DNA of 63,755 nt, filler included, from an uncultured bacterium (lineage in GTDB: Bacteria > Latescibacterota > UBA2968), in assembly GCA_964471275.1 (NCBI GenBank). It is 2 parts of 2 records of this genome, joined end to end, with 100 filler letters (N's around TTAATTAATTAA, not from the genome) between each part and the next. Parts side by side here need not be neighbours in the genome. Positions count along the whole stretch, not along the records: positions 32,016 to 63,755 come from CAYYGZ010000022.1; 1 more part is not named here. One strand, given 5' to 3'. How positions within the stretch are numbered: position 1 is the stretch's first letter; the number at the start of each line of letters is the position of its first letter. This document shows, piece by piece, positions 31,916-51,941 of this stretch. Position numbers and translations under genes: made by a program. The notes below the pieces were generated by a model, which saw only the letters and a list, made by a program, of their open reading frames with translations, was not told the DNA's origin and did no database searches.

Positions 31916-32015
31916 NNNNNNNNNNNNNNNNNNNNNNNNNNNNNNNNNNNNNNNNNNNNTTAATTAATTAANNNNNNNNNNNNNNNNNNNNNNNNNNNNN
32001 NNNNNNNNNNNNNNN
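31916..32015. other. Artificial contig-joining linker
   Basis: 44 N + TTAATTAATTAA (stops in all six frames) + 44 N. Confidence 0.97.
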
Positions 32016-39641: not shown

Positions 39642-40694
39642 TCAGGCATTCCAATCGATATAGTTCGCGCTCTCGTTCATCAGCGTCTGGACATACTCGC
39701 TGATCAGGTGCTCGTCCGGTTTCGTCTCCAGCATCCGCATCGTGAACGGTCGCATCACGGGCACCCGCATGATCGGATCGGTCCAGTCTTGGACATACAC
39801 CGTGTCCGGGAGCGATTCGAGAATCGTCCGGATATTTGTCTCCAGGTCATCGGAATGGTAATCCTGCAGCTCCGTCACGTGGAACGACTCGGGGACGAAC
39901 GTCTGCAGGTCGTGAATCGAGCGCGTCTTGTGACTTTGCAGTGTCTCGTTAAAGGCGCGCTGCAAGGCGATCTGACCGTCCAGGTGAGCGCACGACCGGA
40001 CGAACGGCCCGATATCTCGTGGGCAGACGATCGCGTGAATTGTCGTCACCTTCGGATTCTCGCCCGGCACGGCGACCGCGAGCATCTTCTCGGACACGAC
40101 CGGATGAAACTCCGTTAGTCCCGGGTCGATAAACTCACGATGGGCAAGCCCGAATCTCCCCAGATGCAGACAGACATCGAGATGTTCATACATCTCGAGC
40201 AGGCCGTGAAGCACGCACTCGAGCACATTGTTGCCAGCCGACACCCCGTCCGCTGTCTCGTTCAGGTGTTCGATCACATCGTTGGGCATCGTCGCCGGCA
40301 CCAGCGACAGATCGTCTGTCAGCTCATATACGGGAGCGTTCCCGCCCTGCTCGAGCCGGATGAACAGGGAGAGACGTTCGATCGCCTCCGCGAGTGCCCC
40401 CGCGGACACTTGATCCTTGTTGAGACCCTTGCCCATCGTGCGCATGGCCTCGCCCTCCATGAGCGGTCCTTCATACTGCCGGAACATCTCGGGGTTCTCG
40501 TAGTCCGTGTAGCAATCCGAGATCCACACGGTACCGTAATACCGTCGGGCACGCACCTTGTAGTTGCACCGTCGACCCAGAGCTGCCTGGAAGTCCCGGA
40601 TCGTCTGCTGAAACGGCACGGTCCGGTCCGCATTAACGATATGGCTGTGCTCGTGATCGACAGGGGTCGAGCAGATGGGATCAGCTGCCGTCAC
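39642..40694 (-). CDS. YcaO-like family protein (divergent)
   Basis: DRTVP, MGKG...SAGALAEAIER, DGVSAGN...HGLLEMYEHLD, AHLD..IALQRAFNETLQ, VQDWT...VPV. Confidence 0.82.
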   Translation of the reverse strand: MTAADPICSTPVDHEHSHIVNADRTVPFQQTIRDFQAALGRRCNYKVRARRYYGTVWISDCYTDYENPEMFRQYEGPLMEGEAMRTMGKGLNKDQVSAGALAEAIERLSLFIRLEQGGNAPVYELTDDLSLVPATMPNDVIEHLNETADGVSAGNNVLECVLHGLLEMYEHLDVCLHLGRFGLAHREFIDPGLTEFHPVVSEKMLAVAVPGENPKVTTIHAIVCPRDIGPFVRSCAHLDGQIALQRAFNETLQSHKTRSIHDLQTFVPESFHVTELQDYHSDDLETNIRTILESLPDTVYVQDWTDPIMRVPVMRPFTMRMLETKPDEHLISEYVQTLMNESANYIDWNA

Positions 40695-41848
40695 CCTTTC
40701 TGCCCCCGTGCTCCTCCGCCTGGCGCCATCCTCTCAAGATCTGCCGCTGCCTCGATGAACCGTCCCAGCTGTCGATAGGCCTCACCGCGGGCCGATATCG
40801 CGAATATGTCCTCGGGATCGAGAGCGATCGCACGGTTGTAGTCTTCGAGTGCCTCCTCGCAGCGATCCAGCTGTCGGTAGGTCTCGCCTCGACGGGCCCA
40901 GATCCAACTGTCCTGACCGTCGATCGCAATCGCTCGGTCGAAGTCGGCAAGCGCCTTCTCGAACTCATACATCCTGCGGTAGGTTTCCGCACGACCGGCC
41001 AACGCCGGGGCATCCTCTGCATCCAGAGCGATCGCACGGTCAAAGTCCTCGAGCGCGGACTGAAACTGGTTCTGCTGTCGGTAGGTTTCGCCGCGCCCGG
41101 CCAGGGCTGCTGGCGATTCGCCAAATGTCTCGATTAGAAGGGAGAAATCATCGAGTGCTTCGTCAAGTCGTCCGGACTGTCGATATGCGATGCCCCGACT
41201 CATAAGAGCGCCGTCGTATTCCGGGTTAATCGACAGCGCTTGCGTAAAGTCAGCCTCGGCCTCTTCCCATCGGCCCTGGATCCGGTACACTTCTCCCCGG
41301 CACGCGTAGGCTTCTGGGTTTCCGGGGTCCCGTGAGATGGAGGCGTTGAAGTCGGCGAGCGCCCTATCGTATTCGCCGATCTCTCTGAAGATGTCCCCCC
41401 GGCCCACAAGCACGCCGGTCATCGACGGATCAAGTCTGAGTGCGGTCGTAAAATCATCAGCCGCTTCCTCGAGTCGGCCCATCACACGCTTTGTGTCCGC
41501 CCGACTGGCGATCACGATCGCATCACCAGGCGCCAGTTCAACGGCACGATCAAAGTCAGAGATCGAGGCGTCGAACTCGCCCGCGAGCCCGCGTGCGATC
41601 GCCCGGTTCGTGTAGAGCCAGCCGTCGTTTGGGCTCCGGGAAATGGCTCCGTCGAGCGCCTCGAGTGCGGCTGGCAGCTGGCCAGTTTGACCCAGCGTAA
41701 TGGCGAGTTCGCCCGCAGCCTGTGCGTGGTCGGGATCGAGTTCGAGCGCGGACCGGAAATCAGCGAGCGCTTGCTCAAACCGGCCCTGATCGCGCACAGC
41801 CAGTCCTCGATCGACAAGCTCATCGGCGGAATGTGACACGTCTGGCAT
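40691..41848 (-). CDS. Tetratricopeptide repeat protein
   Basis: About 11 regular 34-aa TPRs (RG..Y...G..E.A..DF..AI.LDP); GTGA overlap with ycaO. Confidence 0.92.
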   Translation of the reverse strand: MPDVSHSADELVDRGLAVRDQGRFEQALADFRSALELDPDHAQAAGELAITLGQTGQLPAALEALDGAISRSPNDGWLYTNRAIARGLAGEFDASISDFDRAVELAPGDAIVIASRADTKRVMGRLEEAADDFTTALRLDPSMTGVLVGRGDIFREIGEYDRALADFNASISRDPGNPEAYACRGEVYRIQGRWEEAEADFTQALSINPEYDGALMSRGIAYRQSGRLDEALDDFSLLIETFGESPAALAGRGETYRQQNQFQSALEDFDRAIALDAEDAPALAGRAETYRRMYEFEKALADFDRAIAIDGQDSWIWARRGETYRQLDRCEEALEDYNRAIALDPEDIFAISARGEAYRQLGRFIEAAADLERMAPGGGARGQKG

Positions 41849-42862: not shown

Positions 42863-44146
42863 TTACTCCGCGATCGAACGCCCGAAATTCTCGACAAAAG
42901 TCAGGAAATCAGAAAAATCCACCGAGCCGCTCTGGTCGACATCGTATACGGGGTCGGTCGTGCCAAACGCACCGGCGAAACCGAGGAAATCAACGAAATC
43001 CACCGAGCCGCTGCCATCGAAGTCTGTTCGCGTATCCGCCGGGATGGCCTGTCCGGCACCCGTGATGTCTACCGCGACCGAAGCCTTATCTGGGTCGTCA
43101 CTCAGAACCGTAACGGTGCCGGTGAACGCTCCCTCACCCGACGGCTGCACGGTAACCGTGATCGTTCTCGATTCTCCCGGTCCCAGCGTGAAGGCCTGGT
43201 CGGATACCGTCAGGCTTGTCAGATCACTCTGGACATCTGTAACCGTCAGCGGTCCGAGACCCTCGTTCCGGATCTCAATTGTCCGAGACAGGGATCGTCC
43301 CACCTCGATCGTGCCGTAGTCGACCTGTTCGGTCGGTAATGCGATCGCTGGTGGCAAACCGCCTTCGATCAGAATACTCGAGATCGGGAGCGACCAGTTC
43401 TTCTCGTTCGTCACGACTTCGACTGATCCGGTAAGCGTTCCTTCTCGCGTCGGGCTCAGCGTGATCGTAAACTGCTCGCTGGCGTTTGGACTCACCGTGA
43501 ATGCGGTGCGGTCAACGGTGACCTGATCCGATGAGGGTCGGATTGCCGTCACCTCCAGGTCTACCAAACCCGTGTTCTCGACGGTAATCTCGATCTTTCG
43601 CTCAACACCAACCTCACCTCTCGTCCCCCAATACAGCGACTTGGGCTTCAACTCAGACACAGGCATCGGATCGTTGATGAGATCGATCAGATCGACAACC
43701 TTGTCTCGATCCGCGACGCTCAGGATCCCGCGAACGATTCCGCCAGGATCGACGACGATGATATTCTCGACACCCAGTCCCCAGGGCATCCCATCGCTCG
43801 TTCCATTCTGCAGCAGCAGGAACTTGACCTGGGTGACAAACTGATACGCGTTCAGCTGGGTCGCCGACCCATTCCACAGATCGACGCCCACCATCTCGAA
43901 ATTCTTGTCTCGCGTTACGTCGACAATCTCTTCTTGCACGAACGGACCCGCCGCTCTGCAGACGCCTCAGTCGTGGCCCAGAAGAAAGATACCCAGGATC
44001 TTCCCTCGATATTGCGACGGGCTTCGGAAGGTGCCGTTCAGGTCGGGCAGCGTGAAATCGTGAATCGGTTGGCCCACAAGCGTCTGACCGACACTGGGGG
44101 CCGCGGCCGCAAGGAAGAGCAGTACCCCGGCTGTCAGTTTTCTCAT
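42863..44146 (-). CDS. Secreted selenoprotein: redoxin/AhpC-TSA domain (UxxC) + two Ig-like (ASH/choice-of-anchor D-like) domains + dockerin/EF-hand-like tail
   Basis: GGAGG RBS, ATG 44146, signal peptide MRKLTAGVLLFLAAAAPSVG, DFTLPDLNG...YRGKILGIFLLGHD-TGA(43969-43967)-GVC, then in frame into the track ORF 42863..43939; 427 aa with U60. Confidence 0.88.
43935..43960 (-). promoter_or_regulatory. Bacterial SECIS-like hairpin just 3' of the Sec UGA
   Basis: mRNA UGA GGCGUC UGCA GAGCGG CGGGU CCGUUC G UGCA: a 6-bp upper stem plus a 4-bp lower stem, with a G-rich apical loop. Confidence 0.72.
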
Positions 44147-44400
44147 TCTATCCTCCGTAGTACTAACTCCCCGTAAGCCGGAAGGTCCTTTGCTTTCACC
44201 GGGGAAATATCGTCAATTCAGCAGAACGCTTTCCGAGTATGCCAAAACCGTTCCGGAATTCCTCTCAGAACTGTAACCACCTGAAATTAAAAATCTTAGG
44301 GACACAAACCGGGATCAAAGATCAGGCGGCCGAATACCTGTATCGGATGCAAGCGTGAGACCCCCCGGCAGACTCTAGCGGTCGCAGAAGAGCAGCGCAC

Positions 44401-45963
44401 CTAGAAACGGGTCAGAATGCGCAGCTCGGCTCCCCGGAACGCCAGCACCTCGTAGCAGGTTCCGGATGTGCAGGCTGTCCCTCCCCGTCGCTCGCCGGCA
44501 AAGAGCAGGGCCTCATAGCGGTTGAATCGGGCATTCGCATGGATGGAAAAGAACCGAACCGGTTCCGTCTCGAACGCCAGTGTCTCGGGCAGGTCGGTCT
44601 CCGACAGGTTGGTCGAGCGATCCATCACAAGCGCCGCACCGAACCCGGCGGGAGATTGCCAGGACAACTGCGCATAGGTGTCCCAGTACCACGGTTCCAC
44701 GCCAAAGGGCAGTTTGCCTCTCTGGAGTTCCAGGCTCAACTCGAAGGACTGCCCCGCGGACGTCGTTGTCCCTAGAAGAACCCCACCCGTGCGGTGCGCG
44801 GTTAGCGCCTCCAGCTCGTCCCTGCCCCAATCAATGAAGACGGAGGCGTTCTGCGCGGAAGGAAGGAAATCCAGATCGAGCCCTATATACCGTTCCTCGA
44901 AAACCGTCGATACCCGAGCGGACAGCTGGTTCTTCCCTCGACTAACATTTCCCGTCACCGTGACAATCCCCGGAATGGGGTATACCGCTTCGATCTGGTA
45001 ACCCTTTTCGTTCAACGTCTGTAGAATGTGCGTGTTCCGGTTGAGCAGATAGGCGGCGTGTTCACGAACCAGCTGCGGAGGATCGTTGGCGAGCAAATCG
45101 AAATTGTCGTAGTCCTTGTATTCGACGCTGAAGCCGAAAGAACCGATTCCGAAATTGCCTGCCAGGTAGCGACCGTGTCCGTCACTCGTGAATTTCTCTC
45201 TACGACCCAGCTCCGCATACAGATCGCCACACACCGAAGTCAGCCCAGTCCGTTCGAACAAGGGGCCGAGTTCGAGCCCTGCCAGCCACGACCAGGCGTA
45301 GCTGTTGTCGACCCCATCCGGGCGCAGGTTCACGGCCGTCCCCCCGATCTTCAGCGCTGGAAAAGGCCGCACGTGGACCTCACCACCCAGGATCCAGTCT
45401 TCCCGACGGTCGCTCCCAACGCCTACCAGCTTTTCAAACAAACTGATCGAGTCCGGATAACCTGGTGAGATGTCGCCGGCAACGGGACGACCGGCCAGCG
45501 CCTTGACCTCGAACAGGTCATCAGACCACGACACCAACCCACCTTCCATATCCTGCGTGTTCGTATACCGCTGCCTGAATAGCGCGCTTTCGATGATCGA
45601 ACCGGACAGCTCGAAGGCACGCATCGTCAGCCCGCGACCCAGGATTCCGGTAAAATTCCCACCGGTAACGTATGCGGGTCCATTAGACCACAACACATAT
45701 CGTTCGCTGAGAAACGTCATCCTTCTGTCCTCGACGGATGCCCGGTAGATCTCGAACCGGCCCCCGGCCTGGATTGCACCCATCGTGTAATCGACGCTGA
45801 ACTGCTCATACACATTCGAGAAATCCTCGGCATCTTCGTTCGGCACGCGTCCGCGCTGTGCCTCCGTAACACTCGTTACCGATAGCTGTCCGGCAACCCG
45901 TTCGGGCAAGTGGACCCACGACACCAGAAAAATGATCAGACAGATTCGGCTCAGCATTCTCAT
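44401..45963 (-). CDS. DUF6029-like outer-membrane beta-barrel protein
   Basis: Signal peptide, GRGLTMRAFE, SVEYKDY, C-terminal RRGGTACTSGTCYEV...RILTRF ending in Phe; ATGA-coupled to TlpA. Confidence 0.75.
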   Translation of the reverse strand: MRMLSRICLIIFLVSWVHLPERVAGQLSVTSVTEAQRGRVPNEDAEDFSNVYEQFSVDYTMGAIQAGGRFEIYRASVEDRRMTFLSERYVLWSNGPAYVTGGNFTGILGRGLTMRAFELSGSIIESALFRQRYTNTQDMEGGLVSWSDDLFEVKALAGRPVAGDISPGYPDSISLFEKLVGVGSDRREDWILGGEVHVRPFPALKIGGTAVNLRPDGVDNSYAWSWLAGLELGPLFERTGLTSVCGDLYAELGRREKFTSDGHGRYLAGNFGIGSFGFSVEYKDYDNFDLLANDPPQLVREHAAYLLNRNTHILQTLNEKGYQIEAVYPIPGIVTVTGNVSRGKNQLSARVSTVFEERYIGLDLDFLPSAQNASVFIDWGRDELEALTAHRTGGVLLGTTTSAGQSFELSLELQRGKLPFGVEPWYWDTYAQLSWQSPAGFGAALVMDRSTNLSETDLPETLAFETEPVRFFSIHANARFNRYEALLFAGERRGGTACTSGTCYEVLAFRGAELRILTRF

Positions 45964-46484
45964 TCGGAGGCAGACTCCTTAGATGTCTCGAGACCGAGAA
46001 CAGATTCGATCGCATCGATCAGAAGATCTTCCTGGCCCTTCACAAAACCGGTTTGCCGAAAAACAATCTCACCGTCCTGATCGATCAACACCGTGCTGGG
46101 CAAAGCGGACACACGCATCCGCTTCCGGACCCCGCCATCCAGATCGAGTGCGATCGGAAAAGTGAGCTTCCGTGCCCTCAGAAACGGCTTCACCGTCGGC
46201 TGACCTCGAGGTCCATCCTCGTTGACACCTACGACGATCAGACCCCGTGTATGATACTGATCGTGGATCTCCTGAATCTTCGGCATTGCCTTGACACAGG
46301 GCTTGCACCACGTTGCCCAGAAGTCGAGCAGTACAGGCCCGTCCTCGAGCATCGACTTCAAATGGACGCGTCTACCCTCGGGTGATCGAAGATTGAAATC
46401 GGGCGCCAGATCAGATGCGGCAATGGGACGAGTAAGTGACAACACCACACAAACTAGGAAGCAACGAATGGCGACTCTCGTCAT
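45960..46484 (-). CDS. TlpA-like disulfide reductase (thioredoxin fold)
   Basis: Signal peptide, APDFNL, LLDFWATWCKPC, ALPSTVLIDQDG. Confidence 0.93.
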   Translation of the reverse strand: MTRVAIRCFLVCVVLSLTRPIAASDLAPDFNLRSPEGRRVHLKSMLEDGPVLLDFWATWCKPCVKAMPKIQEIHDQYHTRGLIVVGVNEDGPRGQPTVKPFLRARKLTFPIALDLDGGVRKRMRVSALPSTVLIDQDGEIVFRQTGFVKGQEDLLIDAIESVLGLETSKESASE

Positions 46485-46729: not shown

Positions 46730-47044
46730 TCACGTGCACCCTGTCGGTGTTGGCAATCCGGCAATCTTGCACGCACCGTCTGCTGGCCCATCGGGAAACA
46801 GATCATAGATCGTATCGATATCCTTCTGGGTGACCTTGCACAGACGCCGGATCAGCGGCGCGATCTCGAACTTCAGGTAGTATTCTCGGATATAGTTCAC
46901 GACAGACCAGTGATCGTCGGTCATCTCCCCGATCCCAATTCCCCTCGCGATATCCCGAGCAACCGCTTCATCCCAGCGTTCAGGCTGTTGGATGAACCCC
47001 TCGTCATCCACATCGATTTCCTTGCCCCCCAGCATCGTCGTCAT
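46730..47044 (-). CDS. dsrC: DsrC/TusE family sulfur-relay protein, two-Cys C-terminus
   Basis: VDDEGFI...WDE.VA, HWSVVNYIR, LFPDGPADGACKIAGLPTPTGCT (CX10C); ATG 47044 with GGAG upstream. Confidence 0.9.
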   Translation of the reverse strand: MTTMLGGKEIDVDDEGFIQQPERWDEAVARDIARGIGIGEMTDDHWSVVNYIREYYLKFEIAPLIRRLCKVTQKDIDTIYDLFPDGPADGACKIAGLPTPTGCT

Positions 47045-47085
47045 AACTGCCACGTAATTCTCCAGTCCAGATATGTGCGCCAACT

Positions 47086-47178
47086 CGTTCCAAAAGGGCA
47101 GAAACGTTCCAGGTTCCACAAGACCTGACGCACCTGGGCCCTTGGAACCTGGAACGCTCTTCCTTCAGTTTTGGAACG
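47086..47178. repeat. Dispersed palindromic repeat family A, copy 2
   Basis: Nested IRs: CGTTCCAAAA/TTTTGGAACG outside, perfect CGTTCCAGGTTCCA/TGGAACCTGGAACG (47105-47156) inside. Confidence 0.7.
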
Positions 47179-47187
47179 CCTCTTCTT

Positions 47188-48357
47188 TCAATCTCCGTGC
47201 CGGGTACTGATGTCTCTCAGCCCCGCGAGCAGCGCATCCACGTGTTCATCCGTGTTGAACGGGCCGAGCGAAATCCTCACCGTTCCTTTTCGCGACACCG
47301 TATCGAGCCGCTGATGAACACGCGGCGCACACAGAAGTCCGGTTCGCGTTGCGATCCCGAATTTCACATCCAGCAGGGTGCCGACGTTGTTGGCGGTCAT
47401 CCCGTCGACATTCACCGACACAACGGGCAGACGATCCTCACTGCGAGTGTCGCCATAGACGGTAAGACCATCCGTCTCTGCCAGTCCGTCCAGCAGACGA
47501 CGTGTCAGAGACCGCTCCCTGGCCTCGATCGTGTTGAGTCCCCGCTCTGCGATCCAGTCCAGGGCGGCGTGCATCCCCGCAATCCCGAGAAGGTTGATCG
47601 TCCCGCACTCCAGCCGCCAGGGATACGCCTCAAGGTGATCCAGTTGTTCCGATCGGACACCCGTTCCCCCGTATCGAAGCGGGGCAACATCGATGCCTTC
47701 TCTCACATACATCCCGCCGATCCCGCTCGGTCCCATCAACGACTTGTGGCCTGTAAAACAGACGATATCCACGCACATCGCTTCCATATCGATCGGAATC
47801 ATCCCGGCCGTTTGGGCGACATCCAGAATCAGCGTCACTTCTGCGTCACGGCAGATCCGACCGATATCCGCAATCGGCTGCACGGTACCCAGTGCGTTCG
47901 AACCGTGTGACATCACCACAGCCTTCGTGTCAGGGCGCAGGGCCTCGCTGCAAACCTGCGGGTCGACCCGTCCCGTTTTATCGAAAGGCAGATAGGTCGA
48001 TGCGATCCCGTCATATTCGGTCAGGTGATAAACCGGACGAAGAACGGAATTGTGGTCGAGGTCGGTCGTGATCACGTGATCACCGGACGACAGTGTCCCC
48101 TGTATCGCGATGTTCAACGCATCGGAGGCGTTCTGCGTAAACACCAGCCGATCGGGATCCCCCGTTGCGCCGAAGAAGGCTGTAAGCCGCTCGCGAGTCG
48201 ACCGAACCATCTGCTCTGCCTCCACCGCCAGATCCGTTCCGCTCCGCCCGGGGTTCACCCCGTAGCGGCCATACCACGCCATTGCCGAAGCCATCACCTC
48301 GGGAGGCTTTGGGAATGTCGTCGCCGCGTTGTCGCAGTAGATCAGCTCGTCAGCCAC
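47188..48357 (-). CDS. Cysteine desulfurase/selenocysteine lyase family (class V PLP enzyme)
   Basis: IYCDNAATTFPKP, DHNSV.RP, DVAQTAG, FTGHKSL (PLP Lys), RTGLLCAP (catalytic Cys); GTG 48357 after GAGGAG, overlapping the DsrK-like stop. Confidence 0.9.
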   Translation of the reverse strand: MADELIYCDNAATTFPKPPEVMASAMAWYGRYGVNPGRSGTDLAVEAEQMVRSTRERLTAFFGATGDPDRLVFTQNASDALNIAIQGTLSSGDHVITTDLDHNSVLRPVYHLTEYDGIASTYLPFDKTGRVDPQVCSEALRPDTKAVVMSHGSNALGTVQPIADIGRICRDAEVTLILDVAQTAGMIPIDMEAMCVDIVCFTGHKSLMGPSGIGGMYVREGIDVAPLRYGGTGVRSEQLDHLEAYPWRLECGTINLLGIAGMHAALDWIAERGLNTIEARERSLTRRLLDGLAETDGLTVYGDTRSEDRLPVVSVNVDGMTANNVGTLLDVKFGIATRTGLLCAPRVHQRLDTVSRKGTVRISLGPFNTDEHVDALLAGLRDISTRHGD

Positions 48358-49726
48358 TCGCGTTCTCCTCACCTTCGAGCACGATCGCGGAATACACCAG
48401 TTCGTGCACACCCGTCACTTTCTGCGGAAGCTTGTAGTGACGGACCAGTTCCTTCAACTGCGTGCGGCACTGGAGACAGGACGTAGATACCACCTCGGCG
48501 CTCGACGCCTGCAATTGCTCGAGCTTTTTCTTACCCGAAATGTCCATCCGGAAATCGTGGACCGACCGGAGGGCCGAGAGTCCACCGCCGCCACCGCAGC
48601 ACCACTGGGTCGGGCCGCAGGCGTCCATCTCCTCATAGTCTGAACAGGATGCCTTCACGATCGCCCTCGGTTCCTCGACAATGTTGCAGCCCGCCGCAAA
48701 CTGACACGAATCGTGGTAAGTCACACGTTCGGTATTTCGCTCGGGGTCCAACTGGATCGTGTCATTCTCGATCAGATCCGAGGTGTACTCGAAAGCGCTC
48801 GTGATCTCGAATGGAAGCGAGCCCCACCATAGCCCCTCGGCGGCCATGAACTTCATTACCCGGTAGGCGTGTCCGCATTCACCCATCACCATCGTCTTGC
48901 AGCCGATCTTCTCTGCTTCATCGATATAGTGCTTGGCCTCGAAGCGCATCGAAAAATTGTTGCCTGTCGTAAAACCGAAGTTGGCGCCATCGAATGCGCG
49001 GCTGCTCATCGTCCAGCTGGCGCCGGCAGCGTAGAACACTTTTGCCATCCCCATCAGGTTCTCCGCGTAGACCAGTACGTCACCGGACGGTGGGACAAAG
49101 TAGATCTCCGCGCCTTCCGCGTCGATCGAGATCGGAATGTCGAGGCCTGTCTCCTCCTTCAGTTCTTCTTCCAGAAACTGGACACTATCGATCATCGCCT
49201 CGGGTGAAGCGCCTTCGAGATTACCCGTATCGAACGAATTGTCCGTGCCCTGCGCTAATGCAGGGGGTGTCAGGCCCATGTAGTCGACCAGTGACCTGCC
49301 TACACGTGTCACGACCGAGTGATCGATCCCGACGGGGCAATAGGCTGCGCATCGTCGACAGGCCAGACACTCGTACATTCGTTCAGCAAACAGTTCAGCA
49401 TCGTCGTTCTCAAAATCAGGTCTGGGCCAGATCGCATTCTTGAGACGCCCCCACCACGTCGCGTGCTTCCGATAGAGCTGGATGACCTGGCTAGAGCGCT
49501 CGACTGGATGCATGCGTTCCGTGGGCTGCCCATAGTAGACCGGGCACTCCTCTGCACAAATCCCACACTTTGTGCAAATGTCCGCGTAGAGCATGAAGGC
49601 GGAGGGCTCATCCTGGATATCGCGGACAAACGGGTCTGGGTCGGCAACACGACGCATGTAGGCGCCGACCATTCCAGGCGGGATGAATTTCTTGTCGCGA
49701 TCTGTCTGTGTTGTGAAGTTGGGCAA
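48350..49726 (-). CDS. DsrK/HmcF-like heterodisulfide-reductase-type Fe-S protein (CCG domain)
   Basis: CTKCGICAEECP, CLACRRCAAYCP, GECGH, YHDSC, CCGGGGG, SCLQC. Start uncertain (TTG 49726, ATG 49672 or ATG 49657). Confidence 0.88.
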   Translation of the reverse strand: MPNFTTQTDRDKKFIPPGMVGAYMRRVADPDPFVRDIQDEPSAFMLYADICTKCGICAEECPVYYGQPTERMHPVERSSQVIQLYRKHATWWGRLKNAIWPRPDFENDDAELFAERMYECLACRRCAAYCPVGIDHSVVTRVGRSLVDYMGLTPPALAQGTDNSFDTGNLEGASPEAMIDSVQFLEEELKEETGLDIPISIDAEGAEIYFVPPSGDVLVYAENLMGMAKVFYAAGASWTMSSRAFDGANFGFTTGNNFSMRFEAKHYIDEAEKIGCKTMVMGECGHAYRVMKFMAAEGLWWGSLPFEITSAFEYTSDLIENDTIQLDPERNTERVTYHDSCQFAAGCNIVEEPRAIVKASCSDYEEMDACGPTQWCCGGGGGLSALRSVHDFRMDISGKKKLEQLQASSAEVVSTSCLQCRTQLKELVRHYKLPQKVTGVHELVYSAIVLEGEENASG

Positions 49727-49837
49727 GGGGTGTCGGGTGTCGGGTGTCGGGTGTCGGGTGTCGGGTGTCGGGTGTCGGGTGTCGGCAAGTCGGCAAGTCG
49801 GCAAGTCGGCAAGTCGGCAAGTCGGCAAGTCGGCAAG
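49722..49837. repeat. Compound tandem repeat: (GGGTGTC)x8 + (GGCAAGTC)x6 + partial unit
   Basis: 7-mers at 49728-49783, 8-mers at 49784-49831; GGCAAGG at both 49722-49728 and 49832-49838. Confidence 0.95.
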
Positions 49838-49992
49838 GAAATATACGGAAATGGCGACTGGGTCCTAGCGAGGCTATCCCTCAAATATGGGCACTTCTGC
49901 TTTGATCCGTGACTTCGAGCAGGTTTACACGTCGTGCAAGGCGTATCGAGAAGCCATGTTGTGTGGCCACGAAGAAGACGCAAACCAGGTCA

Positions 49993-50760
49993 TCAATCCA
50001 CATCACCCGAGAACGAGTCAGGGGATGCCAGGAACCGTCTGCTGATGAAGATGCCGCCGGAGTGGAGGAGATGACTGAACGGCATCACGACCAGAAGCAG
50101 CTGAACGGTCAGAAGATGGAGAACCAGGTTCGGGCCCAATGCGGGTGCGGCAGGCGCAAACACGGCAAGGCTCTCCAGATAGGCAGAGAAGGCAGCGCCG
50201 TCCGGAGGGTCATACGCGACCCAGAGACCCGTCACGACAGTGAGACCAAGTAGGATCTCGGAGAGATAGTCCGTGAGCGAAGTGATCTGGCGAACACGGG
50301 TCACCAGAACCCGGCGAACCAGAAGCACTGCCGCGCTGCCTAGGAGAATCCAGCCTGATGTTCGGCCGATGTCCCTAAGGAACGGCTTGTCCACCCATTC
50401 TGACAGCGGAAGGATCCACTTCAGGTGAAGCACGAAGAGGAGCGTCAGCGATACATGGTACAGCCAGGACCCGAGCCAGAGCAATTTGTCGCGCCGAAAC
50501 AGACCCGCGAAGAGGATGAAACCCTTGAAATCCCGCCAGAGACGCACGCCTCCCGTATCAACCGGATTCGGGAACAGTTCGATTGTCGGTCGATACTGGC
50601 GTGCCCAGACTGCCCTCGTGCTTCTGGGGCCCGGGATCAGCTTCAGGGCAGGATTGTAGAGCTTCATCCAGAACCAGAGACGTAGGAGGATCAGGATCGT
50701 GTATACGGGGACCACGACGTACGGCATGATCACCAGTGTTATGTAGGTGAGTGTGTCGAT
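49993..50760 (-). CDS. DsrM/HmcE/NarI-like membrane cytochrome b
   Basis: TM helices with heme-ligand His pairs WLYHVSLTLLFVLH and LHLL...PFSHLLHSGG. Frame is open upstream to the N gap at 50813; start uncertain. Confidence 0.85.
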   Translation of the reverse strand: MDTLTYITLVIMPYVVVPVYTILILLRLWFWMKLYNPALKLIPGPRSTRAVWARQYRPTIELFPNPVDTGGVRLWRDFKGFILFAGLFRRDKLLWLGSWLYHVSLTLLFVLHLKWILPLSEWVDKPFLRDIGRTSGWILLGSAAVLLVRRVLVTRVRQITSLTDYLSEILLGLTVVTGLWVAYDPPDGAAFSAYLESLAVFAPAAPALGPNLVLHLLTVQLLLVVMPFSHLLHSGGIFISRRFLASPDSFSGDVD

Positions 50761-50927: not shown

Positions 50928-51941
50928 ATGAAAATTCGAATAATCTTTACGCTGGCCTTGCTCGCCTGCTCCGCTCAGGATGACCCATCGGACGTCAACA
51001 TCGCTCCTCTGCCTGAGGACAGGACCGGTTACACATACATCAAGCCGGGCGGGTTCCAGATCAATTACAATCGCGAATTCGTTCCTGCGAACAAGGCCGA
51101 ACTTGGCGCCAAAGACATCGTCATTGGAGTCAATCTGGATGGCGAGGCCAGAGCCTATCCGGTCAACTTCATGACGGGACCGGTCAACGAAGTCGTGAAC
51201 GATCACGTGGGTAAGTCGAACATCACCGTCGCCTGGTGTTCGGTCGACTACAGCGGTGTCGTCTACCATCGCGAGTTCGAAGGACGACCGTATCACTTCG
51301 GTGTCATGGGTATGGACAACGGAGTGATGGTCCTTTATGATCGGCAGACCGGTTCACGGTGGAATCAACTCGTAGGGAAAGCCGTAAGCGGGCAGATGGA
51401 AGGCGAACGTCTTCGCACGCTGCCGTCCACCCTGACCAGTTGGGAGCAATGGCGCGAATCCCATCCGGAAACAACTGTCTACGTCAACCGACGTGTCCCG
51501 TATCAGTCCCAGTTTACAGCCGCGTCAATACGCGAATTAGCCACAAAGGACAAGAGCTCAGAGCTAACGCAGACAGACTTGGTGCTTGCGCTCGAGGGAC
51601 ATATCGACGCCAAGGCCTATCCCATCAAACAGCTTGCGAAAGATCCCGTCGTCAACGACTCGTTCGAACAGGTGCCTATTCTCGTTGCTCTCTCTGACGA
51701 CCTCTCTACAGCCAAGATCTATGACCGCCGGGTCGATGGTCGCACGCTGACATTCGAGAGATCCTGGTTTGGTGGAAAGTTGGTCGATACCGAAACCGGA
51801 ACGGAATGGAACCTCCTCACGGGCCAGGGAATCAACGGCAGTCTCTCCGGGCAGACGCTTCAACCCATCCCGGCCACTTACGTCCTCTGGTATGCCTGGA
51901 AGACCTATAGACCGGACTCGGCCATTCACGGACAAGGCTGA
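50928..51941 (+). CDS. DUF3179 domain lipoprotein
   Basis: Lipobox LLAC; GEARAYP...EVVND.VG, LYDRQTGSRWNQ..G.AVSG, internally duplicated second half (AKAYP...VVND...DTETGTEW). Confidence 0.85.
   Translation: MKIRIIFTLALLACSAQDDPSDVNIAPLPEDRTGYTYIKPGGFQINYNREFVPANKAELGAKDIVIGVNLDGEARAYPVNFMTGPVNEVVNDHVGKSNITVAWCSVDYSGVVYHREFEGRPYHFGVMGMDNGVMVLYDRQTGSRWNQLVGKAVSGQMEGERLRTLPSTLTSWEQWRESHPETTVYVNRRVPYQSQFTAASIRELATKDKSSELTQTDLVLALEGHIDAKAYPIKQLAKDPVVNDSFEQVPILVALSDDLSTAKIYDRRVDGRTLTFERSWFGGKLVDTETGTEWNLLTGQGINGSLSGQTLQPIPATYVLWYAWKTYRPDSAIHGQG

Follow-up and report, generated by a model that had tools for sequence, protein, structure and literature searches.

In UxxC proteins generally, selenocysteine (Sec, U) attacks and the Cys resolves to a selenenyl-sulfide. 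Redoxins bearing this motif are already catalogued among predicted bacterial selenoprotein families (PMC13188914, Table 1), in which the entries 'Prx-like thiol:disulfide oxidoreductase' (PF00578) and 'Redoxin family protein' (PF08534) have the redoxin fold, UxxC motif and downstream SECIS element in common with the protein described here. Marine UxxC redoxins like ours were also reported from the GOS data as 'Prx-like 2' and 'Prx-like 3/Unknown_3' (Zhang and Gladyshev 2008, PMC2398784). Inspected by eye within one of the 59 parts of Dataset S1, the rest of which may hold closer relatives, many of the sequences printed there have signal peptides, some end in T9SS-type tails and 'Unknown_3' carries a TSP3 and dockerin-like region, while the accessible text of that report names neither export nor a dockerin (PMC2398784). 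In fold, the closest described proteins are the TlpA/ResA/CcmG reductases and B. thetaiotaomicron 2LS5, and there is a precedent for a surface thioredoxin in Porphyromonas gingivalis HBP35, which is thioredoxin-active and displayed at the surface via a C-terminal sorting domain (PMC4674972). Cohesin-dockerin anchoring in cellulosomes offers a further point of comparison, in that the protein under study has a duplicated calcium-loop tail (compare 2y3n_B) and cohesins are encoded in the same genome. To our knowledge, the known periplasmic reducing pathways end at the outer membrane.

Against this background we analysed a 63,755-nucleotide stretch of DNA (the window) from an uncultured bacterial genome (G000; 91.85% complete), in which positions 1-31915 belong to contig C21, the run of N at 31916-32015 marks the contig join, and the gene of interest sits on contig C22. 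Under translation table 11 the open reading frame begins at GTG 43939, ten codons downstream of an in-frame TGA; this start, the TGA, the ATG at 44146 and its GGAGG are all found in the sequence where the initial annotation had placed them. Once the TGA is read as U, the frame from this ATG to the TAA at 42863 stays open for 427 codons, with a single TGA, at codon 60. The read-through product has the order of parts proposed for it, namely a signal peptide (the cleavage site of which was assigned by eye), a redoxin domain containing U60-G-V-C63, a pair of Ig-like domains and a dockerin-like tail (Table 1), and U60 and C63 are the sole Sec or Cys residues of the whole protein. Pfam places AhpC-TSA at residues 24-112, below cut-off, and ASH/DUF1573 Ig-like matches in two stretches; NCBIfam matches choice-of-anchor D above cut-off and, weakly, a dockerin. 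A database homologue with 81% identity is labelled Candidatus Latescibacterota. Most of the sequencing runs that contain the stretch are metagenomes of marine or seawater origin; none is listed as RNA, which carries no information on expression. A scan of the locus for promoters and terminators gave matches at chance level only.

Table 1. Features of the read-through gene and of the linked TlpA and barrel genes, in window coordinates.
Feature	Position	Strand	Remarks
Read-through gene, 427 aa: predicted exported UxxC redoxin, two Ig-like domains, dockerin-like tail	42863..44146	(-)	
GGAGG ribosome-binding site	44152..44156	(-)	5 nt upstream of ATG
Sec-type signal peptide, residues 1-~20	44087..44146	(-)	basic start, hydrophobic core, without Cys lipobox
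Redoxin domain (AhpC/TSA-like thioredoxin fold), ~residues 21-159	43670..44086	(-)	acidic residue at cis-Pro position
In-frame TGA, read as selenocysteine U60 of UxxC (U60-G-V-C63)	43967..43969	(-)	
Candidate bacterial SECIS hairpin	43934..43960	(-)	family consensus: upper stem, GGUC loop 18 nt past UGA
Ig-like domain 1 (ASH / choice-of-anchor D type), ~residues 166-259	43370..43651	(-)	
Ig-like domain 2 (ASH / choice-of-anchor D type), ~residues 266-365	43052..43351	(-)	
Dockerin-like tail, duplicated calcium-loop repeat	42866..43042	(-)	common to 39 ORFs of the genome
DUF6029-like outer-membrane beta-barrel, ~24 strands	44401..45963	(-)	invariant CxxxxC pair in last loop
TlpA-like CxxC reductase, signal peptide and cis-Pro	45960..46484	(-)	overlaps barrel gene start by 4 nt

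The structure predicted for the redox domain (mean pLDDT 93) has a redoxin fold, with 2LS5 (Z 17.6, rmsd 2.1, 130 aligned) and ResA (Z 17.5, rmsd 2.4, 129 aligned) tied as its closest matches and BCP-type peroxiredoxins also close. The cis position of this fold is occupied by Pro in thioredoxins and cytochrome maturation proteins, where it probably serves to bind substrate peptides and to prevent metal binding, and by Arg in peroxiredoxins (PMC2757866). In our 21-row alignment the corresponding column, assigned via sequence alignments, holds Glu (13), Asp (6) or His (2) and neither Pro nor Arg, and the peroxiredoxin PxxxTxxC/U motif is absent, with Gly at -3 in 21/21 rows and Leu or Ile at -7. 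Lacking Pro or Arg at the cis position as well as the PxxxT motif, the domain is, at the level of sequence, thioredoxin-fold oxidoreductase-like yet in neither the TlpA/ResA-type nor the peroxiredoxin group: membership of TlpA/ResA/CcmG was rejected on the cis-proline, the redoxin fold with C/UxxC being present, and that of the peroxiredoxins on the motif and the Arg together. The same features recur in Cys forms retrieved by a profile search over 1.84 billion representatives: the 150 best proteins gave 186 domain rows, 134 of which share a Cys-form signature made up of a Gly three residues ahead of CxxC plus the motif G-[LIV]-D-x-W-[ND]-G, and 119 of these 134 rows have Asp in the cis-proline column. 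A small-molecule or otherwise specialised substrate is plausible. Five members of the subfamily (P0072, P0084, P0112, P0140 and P0155) are without one or both active-site Cys, one of them with the full Ig and dockerin-like architecture.

Compared one by one with the systems introduced above, the protein scores under the cut-offs of both PF00578 (24.6 vs 26) and PF08534 (18.6 vs 26.6), and Table 1 in PMC13188914 contains no entry that combines an Ig stalk with a dockerin, and none linked to a barrel. Among the GOS sequences, judged by eye, Prx-like 3 mostly keep a cis-Pro-type motif and Prx-like 2 have Arg (PMC2398784), unlike the Glu, Asp or His found here. Relative to TlpA/ResA/CcmG and 2LS5, ours is without the cis-proline, has Gly in place of the WC motif, and adds a predicted Sec nucleophile, a stalk and a putative docking tail. 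HBP35, in turn, relies on Cys, has a T9SS CTD of its own and also binds hemin (PMC4674972); its likeness to our protein is one of function. Our case differs from the cellulosome in its diderm host, in cohesins fused to T9SS CTDs and in having a redox enzyme as passenger. Two NCBIfam selenoprotein models gave weak matches and were rejected: TUGYCR redoxin (NF053656), matching the redoxin domain with 21.7 bits vs a cut-off of 100, and OS_HP2/DUF1573 (NF041425), matching the Ig domain with 37.6 bits vs a cut-off of 100; proteins of the OS_HP2 type place Sec within a UGC motif, but neither Cys nor Sec is present in the Ig domains of ours. Matches to the deiodinase model NF038285 are weak as well, and no deiodinase appears among the 50 fold-comparison entries shown, which does not exclude one. 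The absence of the thioredoxin cis-proline and of the peroxiredoxin motif, together with the exchange of dockerin-like and T9SS-type tails described below, sets this subfamily apart from known UxxC redoxins. The initial annotation had taken the architecture to be uncharacterised, and in the open-access literature searched we found no paper on it or on the three-gene module presented below; the general design is, however, visible, though unrecognised, in the examined portion of the 2008 GOS supplement (PMC2398784).

The signal peptide very likely carries the protein out of the cytoplasm. At its other end, the tail displays the duplicated calcium-loop and helix repeat by which dockerins are recognised, and its profile finds the cellulosomal dockerin 2y3n_B as best PDB match over the whole length (E 1.4e-11). 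Tails of this kind, carried by 39 ORFs of the genome, are C-terminal on 26, and all 26 match PF00404 at E up to 0.1, that of the 427-aa protein lying under the gathering score (17.7 vs 22.9 bits). Possible partners are encoded in the same genome, which has five Pfam cohesin matches, and cohesin is present in 53/53 genomes of the order. Two small proteins combine one cohesin-like domain with a T9SS CTD (C83:4404-5273 (-), L080; C111:7965-8717 (+), L081) and are candidate adaptors for the dockerin-tailed proteins. Contigs C20, C26, C46 and C78 further encode secreted proteins of 1500-2000 residues that end in a dockerin-like and a cohesin domain, with a T9SS CTD on three of them. The secretion system itself is represented by SprA, seven PorV-family matches above cut-off and 13 CTD matches, with a PorU-like gene below cut-off (245.6 vs 420). 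A predicted complex of a cohesin-like domain with the tail and calcium scored 0.15 relative to a mark of 0.32 (controls not folded), a result that speaks neither for nor against docking. A search for related loci gave four short, unrelated-looking matches among genome contigs and, among metagenome contigs, five matches to the T9SS tail only.

Orthologues bear on the same question. The 427-aa protein has no match to the TIGR04183 sorting domain, which is found on 20 of 35 hand-picked library matches. Within family f4 of the class, the same-locus UxxC orthologues L057, L058, L059 and L066 end, by eye, in a T9SS-type tail, making up the 4/12 loci compared that do so, and orthologue L060 has a dockerin-like tail without Ig domains. 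Dockerin-like and T9SS-type tails thus look interchangeable at one locus, a swap that argues for surface sorting and suggests that a diderm marine lineage displays proteins at its surface by way of cohesins. On balance, the tail most likely docks on the cohesin of a cohesin-T9SS-CTD protein, and the enzyme would thereby be tethered at or beyond the outer membrane. Export and possible surface anchoring, as first proposed, therefore gain support from the cohesin and T9SS genes and from the T9SS-type tails of the orthologues, from which we infer the surface location.

Upstream of the read-through gene lie a barrel gene and a TlpA gene (Table 1) that do not figure in the initial annotation. The barrel model (mean pLDDT 79.8) has about 24 strands by our own count, and its only conserved Cys, found in 16/16 sequences, form a CxxxxC pair within the loop that precedes the final strand; this loop is modelled at pLDDT ~60-75 and may face the outer side, judging only from the alternation of loop lengths. 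TlpA adjoins the barrel in 12/12 loci and the UxxC redoxin does so in nine of them. Of 132 genomes of the class, 99 have both redoxin and barrel and 25 yielded neither; 6, including the near-complete G037 with no barrel detected, have the redoxin alone, and 2 the barrel alone. Kin genomes among them are not independent, and not every weak redoxin match was inspected. The 25 genomes that yielded neither mostly retain selA (21/25, including the single-contig G040 and G130). Among the matches listed, and after exclusion of four partial redoxin rows, the redoxin and barrel genes are no more than 3 kb apart in 61 of 86 genomes, in four orientations. On the same basis, linkage is complete in f2 (20/20) and present in 4/7 genomes of f1 outside genus g6, co-directional in both, reaches 37/41 in f4, there mostly convergent or divergent, and is absent from genus g6 (0/18). 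From co-occurrence and linkage together, the redoxin probably works with TlpA and the barrel as a functional module, and we regard this linked barrel module as the more surprising part of the finding. A DsbD membrane domain is encoded elsewhere in the genome, on contig C18.

Several neighbouring genes were recorded alongside. A cluster of DsrC-like, cysteine-desulfurase-like, Fe-S/CCG and NarI-like membrane genes (window 46730-50733 (-)) lies upstream of the TlpA gene, and was rejected as part of the module as it has no match beside the barrel in 12/12 other loci. A YcaO-like gene adjoins a TPR-repeat gene at window 39642-41848 (-), and a DUF3179 gene is found at window 50928-51941 (+), Sec forms of DUF3179 being known elsewhere according to the table of PMC13188914.

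The explanation that best accounts for these observations, and which we hold to be somewhat probable as a whole, is a Sec redoxin that is exported, tethered and re-reduced via the TlpA-barrel module. SelB would decode the UGA as selenocysteine with the GGUC-loop hairpin as guide, and the signal peptide would export the redoxin from the cytoplasm. Sec60 would then act as the attacking nucleophile, with Cys63 resolving to a selenenyl-sulfide, while the Ig domains would serve as a stalk and the dockerin-like tail would dock on a cohesin-T9SS-CTD protein, placing the tether at or beyond the outer membrane. DsbD would reduce TlpA in the periplasm, the cysteine loop of the barrel would hand the reduction from TlpA to Sec60/Cys63 of the surface redoxin, and the latter would reduce oxidants in the cell's surroundings, such as small disulfides or peroxides. 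Every step of this relay is put forward tentatively. The broader proposition, in which a cross-outer-membrane thiol/selenol relay feeds a cis-Pro-less surface selenoenzyme docked on small cohesin-T9SS-CTD adaptors, and in which some 26 other dockerin-tailed ORFs could share the route, is speculative. A periplasmic reductase kept together with a surface-sorted selenoenzyme and a barrel whose cysteine loop is conserved nonetheless makes a testable candidate for the delivery of reducing power to the cell surface.

The strongest competing account, which we consider unlikely, has the selenoprotein remain periplasmic and act there as a reductase or peroxidase of general scope, with TlpA tending the barrel disulfide and the barrel serving export or assembly instead of electron transfer. 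It agrees with the lack of a T9SS CTD on the 427-aa protein itself, with a barrel model nearest to usher translocation pores (TM 0.54), with the export role suggested for DUF6029 (PMC9603273) and with the one genus whose redoxin has no linked barrel, but sits poorly with the T9SS-type tails of same-locus orthologues, with stalks that in some copies extend >570 residues past U (L021, L034) and would suit surface display, and with a cysteine pair that constitutes the only conserved Cys of the barrel. Alternatively, the module could mediate uptake: a surface selenoenzyme would reduce or bind a small S, Se or metal substrate, the barrel cysteine loop would receive it for import and TlpA would release it in the periplasm. 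The width of the barrel, at ~24 strands, would fit such a role, as would the loss of the cis-proline (0/21 Pro), a residue proposed to block metal binding at CxxC (PMC2757866), and the DsrC-like, cysteine-desulfurase-like and Fe-S genes upstream in the window; these sulfur-relay genes are, however, not shared by the other barrel loci and nothing indicates a substrate. We rate uptake as about equally unlikely.

The favoured explanation, of an exported and tethered Sec redoxin, begins with the TGA codon, and we have little doubt that the gene is a real selenoprotein. The redoxin query (residues 1-162) found matches in 116 of 168 genomes of the phylum, with exactly one TGA in most of the 150 matches listed (119 further matches). 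The initial annotation had assigned the TGA to the first-Cys position of a CxxC, and across 30 loci 38 copies align at this site, with TGA in 36 of the 37 other than this gene and TGT in the remaining one; these 37 come from 29 genomes, and one further partial match short of the TGA site was left out. All 38 have Cys at +3, and Trp occurs in none. The TGA is kept down to ~33% identity, with conservation on both sides of the codon. As to the decoding machinery, the absence of which had been set in advance as a ground for withdrawing the assignment, selA, selB and tRNA-Sec lie together on contig C121, and selD, with one in-frame TGA of its own, on C135. From this conservation and the sel genes, Sec is almost certainly inserted at the TGA. 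Copies with TGA also occur in G074 (91% complete, 430 contigs) and G044 (80% complete, 820 contigs), two fragmented assemblies in which searches for selA and selB gave no match.

That the TGA is instead a true stop (the gene being split or a pseudogene), results from a sequencing error or is a codon reassigned genome-wide to Trp or Gly is very improbable, as the broken redoxin copies in G067 and G070 and the database annotations beginning after the TGA are outweighed by its retention in 36/37 homologues with both flanks conserved, by its unchanged presence in contigs of 4/4 runs from four studies (one run may be the source sample), none of which has TGC or TGT, by the existence of Cys forms of the domain among protein-library matches, and by the 618 of 1340 open frames of >=400 codons in the genome that TGA terminates, from which it follows that TGA is not reassigned genome-wide.

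The annotation pattern has a bearing beyond this genome. Gene callers had been expected to split the gene, and they do: the 10 database homologues examined, of 15 found, are all annotated as starting after the TGA. As the redoxin domain is present in 105/132 genomes of the class, and the close records examined are all cut after the TGA, this amounts to a common selenoprotein family that is mis-annotated.

The contribution of the hairpin is of a different order. It folds as described by the initial annotation, ~6 nt after the UGA and with -12.9 kcal/mol, but as evidence it falls short, being no more stable than shuffled sequences (z -0.15 to -0.98), and its energy was rejected as proof of a SECIS. 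It agrees with the bSECIS requirements (loop 16-37 nt past the UGA, G in the first two loop positions, MFE <= -7.5), with a loop 16 or 18 nt after the UGA and the G in place, although these discriminate weakly, and spacing and loop are consistent with the consensus SECIS model of PMC13188914. A loose hairpin filter passed 328 of the 1609 TGA codons found genome-wide in UxxC or CxxU context, and the combined motif and hairpin scan was rejected as a selenoprotein list for being too noisy. On its own, then, the hairpin is what chance would provide, and the case for Sec stands on conservation and the sel genes.

Comparison across the family is more informative on the shape of the element. The consensus over 31 distinct copies has a 4-pair upper stem and a GGUC loop 18 nt past the UGA, with 97.6% of the stem cells paired vs 38-55% in slid controls. 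Stem covariation is matched by 2/500 shuffles, but amounts to a single double-sided change, a level that by the tool's own statement is reached in 5-25% of unconstrained alignments. Codon choice in the hairpin is skewed, with GGT for 25/26 Gly, CCG for 28/30 Pro and GCG for 22/22 Ala (backgrounds of 25, 36 and 29%), counts that come from related sequences and are hence not independent. The GGU codon is missing in 5/31 copies. The UGA in selD of the same genome is likewise followed by a GGUC-loop hairpin.

Further in-frame-TGA genes in this genome are a SelW-like CxxU gene (C1:46186-46473 (-)), a peroxiredoxin with TxxU (C89:10187-11146 (+)) and the selD already mentioned (C135:3565-4674 (-)). 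The degenerate or frameshifted redoxin copies in G067 (L015:272-1111) and G070 (L067:5906-7267) lie directly behind the barrel, with an intact copy adjacent or elsewhere, and tandem arrays behind the barrel that mix Sec and Cys paralogues are found in G041 (L064) and G044 (L032).
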